This document shows, one piece after another, positions 16,851 through 27,064 of a stretch of 64,000 nt of DNA; the stretch's first letter is position 1, and each line of letters begins with the position of its first letter. The notes under the pieces were generated by a model, which worked only from the letters and a program-made list of their open reading frames with translations, had not been told where the DNA came from and made no database searches. The translations under genes and the position numbers were made by a program. Source of the stretch: an uncultured Nitrospiraceae bacterium (lineage in GTDB: Bacteria > Nitrospirota > Nitrospiria > Nitrospirales > Nitrospiraceae); assembly GCA_963846575.1 (NCBI GenBank), contig CAWJWJ010000001.1:1216001-1280000 (forward strand), given 5' to 3'.

Positions 16851-17774
16851 TTAGTTCTTCCGCGAGGTGATGTAGCGAGCCAGTGCGCGGAGGGGATCGG
16901 CTTTGGCACCGAAGGAAGCGAGACGGTCGTTGGCGCGAGTGACGCAGTCCTCGGCCAATTGTTTCGCCCCGTCCACGCCGTAAAACGTGGGATAGGTTTT
17001 TTTGCCCCGTTGCGCGTCGGTATTGGGGTTTTTCCCGAGTTCCTCGCGCGTGCCGGTCACGTTCAGGACGTCGTCGGCAATCTGGAAGGCCAAGCCGATG
17101 TTTTCGGCGTAGACCGTCAAATCCTCGAGTTGTGCGGGAGTCGCCCCGGCGGTAATCGCGCCCATCCGGACGGCCGCCCTGATGAGCATGCCGGTCTTGT
17201 GTTTGTGGATGGACTGCAGGGTCGTCAGATCGATGTCCTTGTTTTCCGCTTGAATGTCCAACACCTGCCCGCCGACCATTCCGACATTGCCCGACCCCAG
17301 GGTCAGTTCGCGGACCAGCCGAACCTGGCGGACCGCGTCGAGACCAGGAGCGCCATTCGAGCTCGTGCAGAGTTCAAAGGCCATAGTCAGGAGGGCATCG
17401 CCGGCTAAAATGGCCATGGCCTCGCCGTAGACCTTGTGATTGGTCGGTTTCCCCCGGCGGAAATCGTCATTGTCCATTGCGGGGAGATCGTCGTGAATGA
17501 GGGAATAGGTATGAATCAATTCCAGGGAAGAGGCGACCGGGAGCACGGCTTCACCCGGTTCGCCGACTGCTTCCGCTGCGGCGATCGCCAGAATGGGGCG
17601 TATCCGTTTCCCGCCGGCAAACAGGCTGTACCGCATGCTTTCATGCAGGGTCGTCGGCATGGTCTCGGCCGAGGGAATGACCGACTGTAGATAGCGGTCC
17701 ACATGCTCGCGTTTTCGTTCGAGATACTGGCGGATATCCATGCCGGTCGGGGTGAGCTGACTCGTGGGACTCAT
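16851..17774 (-). CDS. ispA: Farnesyl/geranylgeranyl diphosphate synthase
   Basis: GGKRIRP, SLIHDDLPAMDNDDFRRGKPTNH, GQVLD, KTG, FQIADD; start trimmed. Confidence 0.93.
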   Translation of the reverse strand: MSPTSQLTPTGMDIRQYLERKREHVDRYLQSVIPSAETMPTTLHESMRYSLFAGGKRIRPILAIAAAEAVGEPGEAVLPVASSLELIHTYSLIHDDLPAMDNDDFRRGKPTNHKVYGEAMAILAGDALLTMAFELCTSSNGAPGLDAVRQVRLVRELTLGSGNVGMVGGQVLDIQAENKDIDLTTLQSIHKHKTGMLIRAAVRMGAITAGATPAQLEDLTVYAENIGLAFQIADDVLNVTGTREELGKNPNTDAQRGKKTYPTFYGVDGAKQLAEDCVTRANDRLASFGAKADPLRALARYITSRKN

Positions 17775-17946
17775 GCTGAATTCGTTCGAACGCCGTGGCT
17801 CTCCATGTGCGCGAGAGAGTAGCAAAGGGGTTTGAGGGCTGTCAAACGGGGAGAGAGAGTTCAACGCACTCGGACGAGCGTAGTGTATCGTACCTCTCCC
17901 ACCGCTCCTTGTTTTTTCTTCGACCCGTTCGCTATACTCCCCCGAT

Positions 17947-18237
17947 ATGAGTATTCGCAAGGCAGCCGGTGAGTGGGAGCCCATGCTCTTGGGGATCGAG
18001 CCTCGCAATTGCAAGGTATGTGAGCAGGGGCTGTATCGCGACAAAACGATGTTCCGCGGCGGCTGGTCCCGGTGTGCCGTGTGCGATGAATTCGTGCACT
18101 ATAGTTGTCTGGCTAGCGGTAAAGTCAGCTTTCTCAAGGCCCGTCCGCGCATCTGTAAGACCTGTCGCGCCGCTGAGGAACAGGCGAAGCAGATTGCGCT
18201 CCCTCCGTCAAGCCAACCAGCGCCAGTCGGATCATGA
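17947..18237 (+). CDS. Small C4HC3 (PHD-finger-like) zinc-binding protein
   Basis: CKVC-x17-CAVC-x4-H-x2-C-x15-CKTC; TATACT at 17933; alternative start 17983. Confidence 0.7.
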   Translation: MSIRKAAGEWEPMLLGIEPRNCKVCEQGLYRDKTMFRGGWSRCAVCDEFVHYSCLASGKVSFLKARPRICKTCRAAEEQAKQIALPPSSQPAPVGS

Positions 18238-18569
18238 CCCTCCTCCTCGACCCGCAGCAGCGATCAGCCAGACCAGGCTGGCACGCGTTTTTTTACCACG
18301 CCATCCGGTATGTGCTGGCGCCCGTGCTGTTTATCTCTGGCGGGTTCTTCACGTCCAATTTCATCCTGAGCGGGCATTACACTTGGCCAAGAACGAGCCG
18401 GGTGTTCGTGCTGACGCTCACGTTGATGATCCTGGCCTACGAGTTCATTTACAAGGACCGTACAGTGCCGTCGGCGTCACCGGAGCGGGCCTTCAACGCC
18501 GTGCTGTATTCCTGTATGATTCCGTACGCCTTCGGCGTCCTGCTGATGTGGGCGTTAGCGAACCTCTAG
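18234..18569 (+). CDS. Small 3-TM membrane protein
   Basis: ATGA overlap with the previous gene; three hydrophobic segments. Confidence 0.75.
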   Translation: MTLLLDPQQRSARPGWHAFFYHAIRYVLAPVLFISGGFFTSNFILSGHYTWPRTSRVFVLTLTLMILAYEFIYKDRTVPSASPERAFNAVLYSCMIPYAFGVLLMWALANL

Positions 18570-18616
18570 CCGGTGCCGGACGCGGGAATCATCGGCCGGT
18601 CTCCCCACAGGTGACT

Positions 18617-18991
18617 ATGGGACAGCGTTTTCAAAGTGGTGCCTTCGTCCAGCAATGCTTCGCCGTCCATCCGCTCTGTTTATCGCTGAAGCGCATGGAC
18701 GGGGATGGCCGGTTGTTCGTCGCCTGTACATCCTGCCGTATGATGCATCATCTGCTGATTGAGCAGATCGTCGCGCGAGTCGCCGCCGTGCCGCTCGGCG
18801 GCGAGTCGATCAGCGCGAAAACAATTCCGACCGCGAAGGAACTCCTGACCGCCTGCCTCCAGACCCACCCCGAGGCGGTTACCATTCGGGAGTTAGACGT
18901 GATCCGGGACAATGTCGGCTTGCGTTGCGCCGAATGTCGCCGCATGTTCGATCTGCAAGTCTCCACATTCGAATCTCACCAGAAGTCGTAA
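18617..18991 (+). CDS. Hypothetical protein with duplicated C-x3-HP...CxxC modules
   Basis: C-terminal part of ORF 17969..18991 from ATG 18617; internal two-fold repeat. Confidence 0.7.
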   Translation: MGQRFQSGAFVQQCFAVHPLCLSLKRMDGDGRLFVACTSCRMMHHLLIEQIVARVAAVPLGGESISAKTIPTAKELLTACLQTHPEAVTIRELDVIRDNVGLRCAECRRMFDLQVSTFESHQKS

Positions 18992-25876: not shown

Positions 25877-26062
25877 TTACTCAGTCTTGGCGGCTCGTTT
25901 GGTCGTATGTTGAAAGACGCATTTGGGGCAGGTGTAATGAATGAACTGCCCGCTTGCGACTGATCGTTTGGTCATCGCGACCTTGCACCAGGTGCAGAGA
26001 CGATCGGGCAGCGTCTCGATGTGGGTCTGGTCGGTGGAGTGCTGTGTGGACAGGTCAGTCAT
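25877..26062 (-). CDS. Small zinc-ribbon protein
   Basis: CTWC-x16-CPKC; TTGACA on the minus strand near 26094-26099. Confidence 0.6.
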   Translation of the reverse strand: MTDLSTQHSTDQTHIETLPDRLCTWCKVAMTKRSVASGQFIHYTCPKCVFQHTTKRAAKTE

Positions 26063-26133
26063 GCCAAGCATTCTCGCTAAGGGCCTGAGAGTTTGTCAAT
26101 GCGCTCCGTTGGCAGAAATTTCGGAGATAAACA

Positions 26134-26216: not shown

Positions 26217-26660
26217 ATGCAAAACGCCGAAGGCGCCACGTCCGACGATATCTCATCACCCTCAGCCAGGTTTGCTGATTCCGCGATCCACCCGGACTCC
26301 GTCGGACCCGGCAAAGCCTGGGGAATTTGCACCTCCGTTGATCTCCACGATTGCGACCCCGACCGTATCCGCGATGCCAAACAAATCGAAGCCTACGTGG
26401 TGCAGCTCTGCGAACTCATTGAGATGAAGCGGTATGGTTCCTGCCAGATCGTCAATTTCGGCGAAGGTCGCGTCGCCGGCTACAGCATGGTGCAGTTGAT
26501 TGAGACCTCGCTGATCAGCGGCCACTTCGCCAACGATACCAACAGCGCCTATCTCGACATCTTCAGTTGCAAGGGTTACGATCCGGCCGTCGTCGAAGAA
26601 TTTTCCAAATCCTTTTTCAGCGCCCGTCGTTCAAGCCATCGGGCCATGTTGCGTTACTAA
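26217..26660 (+). CDS. speD: Pyruvoyl-dependent S-adenosylmethionine decarboxylase-like proenzyme
   Basis: DLHDC, GYS...LIETSLISGH, AYLDIFSCK. Confidence 0.8.
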   Translation: MQNAEGATSDDISSPSARFADSAIHPDSVGPGKAWGICTSVDLHDCDPDRIRDAKQIEAYVVQLCELIEMKRYGSCQIVNFGEGRVAGYSMVQLIETSLISGHFANDTNSAYLDIFSCKGYDPAVVEEFSKSFFSARRSSHRAMLRY

Positions 26661-26719
26661 CGCAGAGCCGTCGCACGCCCGGCCCTGCGGGGCCTGGTGT
26701 CTCGCCGGGCAGGTACGTC

Positions 26720-27064
26720 ATGAATCAGAGTCCACCCAAAACGGTGCGGTCGTTTTTTTCGACTCTCGCCGCCAAACTGGATCCGGAGGCAGCGGAAGGA
26801 CTGGATGCGGTCTACCAGTTCGATTTGAACGGCGCCGATGGGGGACAGTACCAACTGCAGATCCGGGACGGTGTCTGTCAGGTGTCGGAAGGCACCCACC
26901 CGGATCCGCATGTGACGCTGGCCATGTCGGGCGAAGATTGTCTCCGAGTGTTGAACGGTCAGCTGAGCGGCACCATGGTGGCCATGTCAGGTCGCCTGCG
27001 TATCAGCGGCGATATGGGGTTGGCCCTGCAGCTGGGATCGTTGTTCCCCTCCCTGCGTCCCTAG
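26720..27064 (+). CDS. SCP2 sterol/lipid-binding domain protein
   Basis: YQFDL.G..GG.Y.L.I.DG, P.VTL, M.GRLRISGDMGLA. Confidence 0.88.
   Translation: MNQSPPKTVRSFFSTLAAKLDPEAAEGLDAVYQFDLNGADGGQYQLQIRDGVCQVSEGTHPDPHVTLAMSGEDCLRVLNGQLSGTMVAMSGRLRISGDMGLALQLGSLFPSLRP

Follow-up and report, generated by a model that had tools for sequence, protein, structure and literature searches.

Fingers of the FYVE and PHD types are usually regarded as eukaryotic. FYVE domains display the motifs WxxD, R(R/K)HHCR, and RVC as well as a helix at the last Cys pair, the hallmark of PHD fingers is a Trp two residues before ligand 7, and C1 domains possess an N-terminal His ligand and a single terminal Cys. From prokaryotes, RING, U-box, zf-UBP, B-box, AN1, and LIM domains have reportedly been surveyed by Burroughs, Iyer, and Aravind in 2011, and bacterial binuclear treble clefs in general are already known. 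According to excerpts of the respective papers, FYVE and PHD fingers share one common cross-braced topology (PMC4999995), prokaryotic B-box treble clefs act on membrane proteins (PMC4506424), and prokaryotic RINGs are described as C4HC3 (PMC11354881), so that this ligand order in a bacterium is not unique in itself. Excerpts of two further papers (PMC3417536 and PMC4075521) cite the 2011 survey and contain nothing else of relevance. Our literature search, which did not cover the 2011 survey itself, revealed no relevant paper on a bacterial PHD or FYVE finger or on the gene described here, though the survey may list it. Locus tags or accessions of its orthologues were found neither in the main texts nor in the 11 supplements of PMC12342949.

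The gene in question is located at 17947..18237 (+) of a stretch of 64,000 nucleotides from an uncultured Nitrospiraceae bacterium (the window) and encodes 96 amino acids, comprising a conserved N-terminal arm (residues 1–21), a C4HC3 finger (22–73), and a variable Pro/Ser/Ala tail (about 77–96). The only Cys and His residues of the translated protein are C22, C25, C43, C46, H51, C54, C70, and C73, displaying exactly the spacing C-x2-C-x17-C-x2-C-x4-H-x2-C-x15-C-x2-C. A sequence-only reading of the window had described this order and spacing, a W-x-x-C ahead of the second Cys pair, and the lack of the usual Trp two residues before the last CxxC; all three were recovered, with W40-S-R-C43 present and R68 at the Trp position. 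Comparison of three patterns (strict, PHD-like, and FYVE/RING-like) with the 4.2-Mb genome in six-frame translation (47,144 segments) resulted in a single C4HC3 match, namely this ORF, while five within-segment shuffles gave 0, 0, and 1 matches for the three patterns. Thus, the motif stands above chance. In databases the protein is annotated as hypothetical or under conflicting automatic names, and the start of the gene is often misplaced at Met13. An overlapping frame of 340 aa (+1 frame, 17969–18991) was rejected as a shadow, because in 64 of 97 loci it is interrupted by a stop inside the core of the finger.

Alignment of 131 homologues revealed that the seven Cys are invariant throughout, while His51 is His in 130 sequences; the single exception (L027) has Cys at this position, an exchange compatible with a role as metal ligand. 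In a 40-sequence alignment, all eight ligands were invariant, so that the conservation check proposed in the sequence-only reading came out in favor of the finger. The natural all-Cys (C8) variant (L027:1501–1728) is useful for metal-binding comparisons. Apart from the ligands, M1, L15, V24, R31, T34, G38, G39, W40, R42, L55, R66, P67, and R68 were found in 131/131 members, position 64 was Lys or Arg in all of them, and positions 35–36 were always hydrophobic (M/F/L/I/V). With pS values of 0.57–0.97 compared to pN values of 0.016–0.061 in 22 same-genus comparisons, and third codon positions as the most variable ones, the gene is under strong purifying selection. The first 15 residues (17947–17991, +) follow the pattern M-S-I-R-K/N...G-x-W-x-P-x-x-L, with R4 in 127/131, W10 in 119/131, and L15 in all members; this arm is highly conserved yet poorly ordered in structural models and may represent a binding or autoinhibitory segment.

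Regarding its distribution, a profile search detected the finger in 141 of 143 Nitrospirales genomes and in none of 58 genomes from other orders of the class. Among 41 relatives, which fall into four families (f1–f4), it was present in 38, including all 32 high-quality genomes, and a single-protein search of a phylum sample revealed no finger in 113 genomes outside the order. The gene is essentially single-copy, with an extra 34-aa fragment in one draft genome. A search of 185,579 species genomes gave 388 candidates, of which 383 could be confirmed, and the 80 of these that were listed were all titled Nitrospira, Nitrospiraceae, Nitrospirales, or Nitrospirota. An unfiltered profile search against 1.84 billion representatives resulted in 41 matches at E ≤ 0.001, namely 36 single-stretch family members or fragments and five multi-stretch matches, and no convincing relative outside the family was found there. 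As remote relatives the multi-stretch matches were discarded, four of the five being unrelated Cys-rich repeats (P0154 left out). Two cluster records assigned to other taxa (P0021 and P0196, on contigs of 8 kb and 3 kb, respectively, with 70–79% identity to the query) are probably mis-binned. Apparent fusions in P0150, P0141, and P0143, either of a Rex-like protein with half a finger or of a finger running out of frame into the three-TM (3-TM) protein region downstream, are probably assembly or frameshift artefacts. The description as a standalone protein held up; no longer or fused form was seen among 7,712 candidates of 295–2000 aa, which counts as weak evidence. In viral contigs, the finger was likewise not detected (0 of 37 candidates), and a BFVD fold search yielded nothing at E ≤ 0.001.

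A tie of the finger to nitrite oxidation was rejected, because all four f4 genomes tested carried it without a true nxrA (the f3 control matched). We infer that f4 corresponds to family UBA2166, and the lack of a true nxrA fits the description of this family as NXR-less in excerpts of PMC12342949. Its retention in f4 without nitrite oxidoreductase points to order-specific cell biology.

Structural modelling was performed with AlphaFold2 in two runs, using 26 sequences (pLDDT 66.9) and 131 sequences (pLDDT 72.8, pTM 0.51, without Zn). Both revealed the same secondary structure, namely a hairpin (40–42/49–51), a short helical turn (52–54), and a terminal helix (71–75) after the last CxxC, with residues 1–20 poorly ordered. 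Of the 22 best rows of a VIA comparison with 48,161 representative chains, 21 were FYVE, Rab-effector, or PHD entries, e.g., the FYVE domains of RUFY (Z 4.3, rmsd 2.3 over 48) and EEA1 (Z 4.0, rmsd 2.3 over 49), Slp4 (Z 4.2), and the PHD finger of PHF23 (Z 3.5), and re-alignment gave Z 4.8 with rmsd 3.5 over 52 for melanophilin and Z 4.1 with rmsd 2.8 over 49 for the AL1 PHD. Lower ranks were taken by C1 (Z 2.6), RING (Z about 2.5), and an archaeal 30S chain (Z 2.5). Foldseek placed FYVE or Rab-effector fingers in each of its first 11 rows (E 0.03–0.13). No strong match was obtained, i.e., no Foldseek E ≤ 0.001 and no Z ≥ 5, and the FYVE-type rows came first yet tied with PHD within 1 Z, so that support for the fold comes from the consistency of weak scores together with the ligand pattern. 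A check suggested in the sequence-only reading, AlphaFold followed by Foldseek, points to a FYVE/PHD-type binuclear cross-brace, albeit with weak scores, and none of the three refuting outcomes named in that reading was observed. Since FYVE and PHD share their topology according to the excerpt of PMC4999995, the safe statement is a predicted FYVE/PHD-type fold that is a member of neither family. Its predicted core extends from 18010 to 18165 (+), based on conservation and the fold model, and by analogy with the family fold Zn1 would be bound by C22/C25/H51/C54 and Zn2 by C43/C46/C70/C73.

Profile searches led to no family assignment. No Pfam family passed its cut-off for the finger ORF: PHD (PF00628) reached 16.1 of 24 bits, PHD_4 (PF16866) 19.1 of 30.6 bits, and C1 17.8 of 26.5 bits. 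FYVE (PF01363) gave no match at the locus at E ≤ 1 and was absent from the families matched by members, and neither NCBIfam nor PHROGs matched the finger. Among the 131 members, sub-threshold Pfam matches at E ≤ 0.01 were to C1_1 (106), PHD_4 (47), PHD (21), and zf_VAL1_N (21). Sequence searches against the PDB resulted in weak similarities to the PHD-type fingers of FBXL19, VAL1, and VAL2 (E 0.24–5.8) and otherwise C2H2 noise. Of the earlier proposal of a prokaryotic PHD-like module, the predicted fold type is supported but not the specific PHD assignment, as FYVE and Rab-effector fingers rank at least equal and the Pfam PHD score stays below its cut-off.

Comparison with known systems showed the closest likeness to FYVE and Rab-effector fingers (EEA1, Hrs, and RUFY; Slp4, melanophilin, RIM, and rabphilin), which were the best model matches (Z 4.0–4.8). 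As in FYVE domains, the eight ligands are interleaved in the same way with x4 between ligands 4 and 5, a terminal helix and a basic surface with a hydrophobic loop are predicted, and RVC has a counterpart in R68-[V/I]-C70 (R68 in 131/131, followed by V, I, L, F, or M, with V or I in 121/131); the all-Cys ligand set typical of FYVE is matched by the His51-to-Cys swap in L027. In place of WxxD, however, the finger harbors W10-E-P-M 12 residues before C22, and in place of R(R/K)HHCR it has G-W-S-R-C; the phosphoinositide pocket of FYVE is absent. Further differences are the His at ligand 5 in 130/131 members and the first loop of 17 residues, and unlike Rab-effector fingers it is a standalone bacterial protein without Rab-binding helices. 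PHD fingers share the C4HC3 order and spacing and reach Z values of up to 4.1, but the Trp before the last CxxC is replaced by Arg68 in all 131 members, the core is basic instead of acidic, and the host revealed no histone gene. A local likeness (G-W-x-x-C-x2-C-x3-[V/L]-H-x2-C-[L/I]-A-S) was observed to the PHD-like finger of plant VAL1/VAL2 (PF25813). C1 domains (PF00130), which likewise bind membranes, gave the commonest sub-threshold match, covering C-x2-C...C-x2-C-x4-H-x2-C; unlike in C1, no His precedes C22 here and none is conserved among members, and the finger ends in CxxC. Prok-RING_1 and the prokaryotic B-box are likewise bacterial, of the C4HC3 cross-brace type that is predicted here, and genetically linked to a membrane protein. 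Unlike Prok-RING_1, the finger shows no match to that profile and its model is nearer to FYVE/PHD than to RING, and unlike prokaryotic binuclear treble clefs it is a vertically inherited core gene rather than a sporadic one, with no ubiquitin-system neighbors seen.

The promoter region of the gene is also conserved. A -10 hexamer TATACT is located at 17933..17938 (+), 8 nt before the ATG, as previously noticed, and a -35-like TTGTTT at 17909..17914 (+), 18 nt upstream of it. Analysis of 105 loci revealed TA[TA]A[CG]T 6–10 nt before the ATG in 99 and a Shine-Dalgarno-like motif in four, and a TTG-led hexamer preceded the -10 element by 17–18 nt in 98 of 101 loci with a -10 match. The exceptions were four f4 loci without the element and two others scored at 2–3 nt. 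The finger promoter was not listed by a consensus promoter scanner. This conserved layout agrees with the leaderless mRNA suggested by the sequence-only reading, the start site being deduced from the sequence. Since TATA[A/C]T also stands 6–10 nt before the ATG of about 29 ORFs genome-wide, a modest excess over most other distances, such a layout is ordinary for the organism, whose genome thus appears to make regular use of leaderless mRNAs.

Directly downstream, a gene for the 3-TM membrane protein of 111 aa (18234..18569, +) overlaps the finger stop codon in an ATGA (18234–18237). It displays three hydrophobic segments and invariant G37, E70, F71, P97, and G101 but no convincing family, and based on charge its E70-F71 loop (conserved E-F-x-Y-K) is probably cytoplasmic. 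Within the class, 111 of 201 genomes revealed the gene, all of them inside the order, and 110 of these also carry the finger; in the remaining one, the 3-TM gene is a fragment at a contig edge. Conversely, no 3-TM gene was detected in 31 of the 141 genomes with the finger, of which 30 belong to genus g7 (30/46), and there the invariant residues of the finger are unchanged. Where present, it is the sole neighbor common to all four families, adjoining the finger in 80 of 105 loci with an [A/G]TGA stop/start overlap in 60 of the 80, which supports the previously proposed translational coupling. Taken together, the near-exclusive co-occurrence and the finger genomes without a detected 3-TM gene suggest a dependence of the membrane protein on the finger and not the reverse; the earlier link to a membrane protein thus holds as coupling, but this partner is dispensable. 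In some f2 genomes, about 5 kb lie between the two genes (G277:C1:1584402–1590021 and G307:C1:1156765–1162269), and G034 (L042), which yielded no 3-TM gene, has a different long ORF overlapping the finger stop codon.

The remaining neighborhood is less constant. Divergent from the finger lies a gene for a polyprenyl (farnesyl/geranylgeranyl) diphosphate synthase (16851..17741, -; NF045485 over its cut-off). This ispA is found in many f1–f3 loci, together with genes we take to be hpnA-like and cruF-like, while in f4 the pair lies beside what are presumably a 2-oxoacid:ferredoxin oxidoreductase-like cluster and hflKC-like genes. We did not pursue the idea that the finger is linked to the synthesis of isoprenoids or hopanoids, as ispA is missing beside the f4 finger. 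In f1 only, the pair is followed by a gene for a Cys/His protein of 124 aa (18617..18991, +), which is no constant part of the unit. It harbors two C-x3-H-P...C-x2-C half-repeats and is a possible second two-Zn protein; no family passed the cut-off and BLASTP of its two halves gave nothing significant. Its N. moscoviensis orthologue was represented by 7 unique peptides (Table excerpt of PMC8407350). Further downstream, genes for a 64-aa double-CxxC protein (25877–26071, -) and a product that is presumably a small sterol-carrier-like protein (26567–27064, +) were identified, which in f3 loci immediately follow the 3-TM gene and are thus about 7 kb nearer to it than in the window.

For the orthologue in N. 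moscoviensis, NITMOv2_0580 (91% identity over residues 1–76, matched by end coordinate), excerpts of published data sets were available. Its RNA reached an RPKM of 560, i.e., 5.7-fold the median and rank 329, at low read counts (PMC6606698 Table S1), and the whole-cell proteome contained 8 unique peptides and 66 spectra (rank 334; PMC8407350 Table S1). Five membrane digests in the same excerpt contained no peptide of NITMOv2_0580, and likewise none of the 3-TM orthologue NITMOv2_0581, for which 2 unique peptides were recorded. In a second proteome, NITMOv2_0580 was seen in 6/6 samples, and nitrite depletion lowered it 1.5-fold, with an adjusted p of 0.002 but without being flagged as significant (PMC9381531 Table S1). 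Thus, the finger gene is real and its N. moscoviensis orthologue is expressed as RNA and protein, so that expression of the ORF, on which the sequence-only reading had depended, is observed for the orthologue (PMC6606698 and PMC8407350, in part).

Regarding its function, net K+R-D-E over residues 21–76 averaged +7.6 among the 131 members (range +4 to +16) and the core pI is 9.3; together with the invariant surface, this basic core points to a specific, probably anionic partner. Our preferred reading, put forward tentatively and as somewhat short of probable, is that of a bacterial FYVE/PHD-type cross-brace finger with an anionic binding target, which most likely lies at the inner membrane. The protein would act as a housekeeping cytoplasmic adaptor of Nitrospirales, in which two structural Zn ions would hold the predicted fold and present a basic/aromatic surface (R31, W40, R42, K64, R66, and R68) together with a hydrophobic tip (35–36). 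Working in the style of FYVE and Rab-effector fingers rather than as a histone reader, it may dock on the cytoplasmic membrane from inside the cell, on anionic phospholipid and/or on the E-F-x-Y-K loop of the 3-TM protein, and would thereby recruit or regulate a partner at the membrane, serving the 3-TM protein where present. We counted in favor the FYVE and Rab-effector top rows, the RVC counterpart, the terminal helix, the L027 swap, the basic core, the order-only range of the 3-TM gene, its near-restriction to genomes with the finger, its place as the one neighbor common to f1–f4, and the prokaryotic B-box precedent (excerpt of PMC4506424). Against it count the weak structural scores, the missing Pfam FYVE match, the C1- and PHD-leaning sub-threshold profiles, the absent phosphoinositide pocket, and the retention of the finger where no 3-TM gene was found, as well as, weakly because the 3-TM protein also had none, the absence of peptides in membrane digests. 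A more specific version, in which a native, vertically inherited finger of the FYVE/PHD branch recognizes an anionic lipid in the inner membrane, using an arginine patch of RVC type together with a hydrophobic turret loop, appears unlikely as it stands.

The same basic and aromatic surface could alternatively bind nucleic acid, the ribosome, or RNA polymerase, making the finger an order-specific translation or transcription factor with a merely co-expressed 3-TM gene, which we regard as the main rival, possible but rather doubtful. Its invariant Arg and Trp residues and high pI would suit such a role, its conservation and single-copy spread resemble a core informational protein, and in 31/141 genomes it occurs independently of the 3-TM gene. 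In the excerpted N. moscoviensis data, it is abundant in whole-cell but not in membrane samples (PMC8407350) and shows a decrease on nitrite depletion that was not flagged as significant (PMC9381531). However, the conserved neighbors include no informational genes, ribosomal and nucleic-acid-binding treble clefs score lower against the model, as with the archaeal 30S chain, and the persistent coupling to a membrane gene would be left unexplained.

A true PHD-like peptide reader, as the sequence-only reading had suggested, would bind a protein terminus or a modified Lys/Arg peptide in a groove along the G-W-S-R-C strand, with W40 and F49, presumably at the positions of PHD cage residues, forming a partial cage. 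The ligand order and spacing, the AL1 match, the sub-threshold PHD, PHD_4, and VAL1 profiles, and the weak PDB similarities to FBXL19, VAL1, and VAL2 speak for it, but a basic tail like that of histones would be repelled by the strongly basic core, the Trp before the last CxxC is absent, F49 is Val in 7/131 members, and a search of the genome with PF00808 revealed no gene for a histone fold, while the control matched. Peptide reading in PHD style is therefore distinctly unlikely, and the finger probably does not read histones. Slightly more improbable still is a prokaryotic RING-type E3 or proteolysis adaptor, a Zn/redox switch, or a pair of independent ribbons without specific ligand, since, against the C4HC3 order of prokaryotic RINGs (excerpt of PMC11354881), an Atlas lead (nearest named cluster with Prok-RING_1 in 34% of members, score 0.86), and four Pup/UBact-type ligase matches in the genome, there stand the silence of Prok-RING_1 (PF14446) in the genome and in all 131 members at E ≤ 0.01, the low RING Z values, the lack of ubiquitin-system genes seen nearby, a basic core and many invariant non-ligand surface residues implying a specific partner, and the failure to find an E2 gene with PF00179 or PF14461, for both of which the controls were silent as well. 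The four ligase matches are PF03136 Pup-ligase/Dop-type genes in two clusters (L111–L114; G000:C2:182648–187471 and 2356983–2361396), not linked to the finger and presumably consistent with the Pup- and UBact-type systems of the group.

Altogether, the finger gene defines a real and hitherto unnamed family that is order-defining and, by prediction, a bacterial variant of a known fold. As an unnamed core gene, it provides a clean marker of Nitrospirales. Being a minimal, standalone, and expressed bacterial finger, it makes the role of the fold without histones or endosomes testable and bears on how the eukaryotic readers arose. If the membrane-lipid reading is true, the phosphoinositide and histone readers of eukaryotes would have a working prokaryotic counterpart in the finger, which might even descend from a sister of their precursor and is expressed in a culturable Nitrospira.
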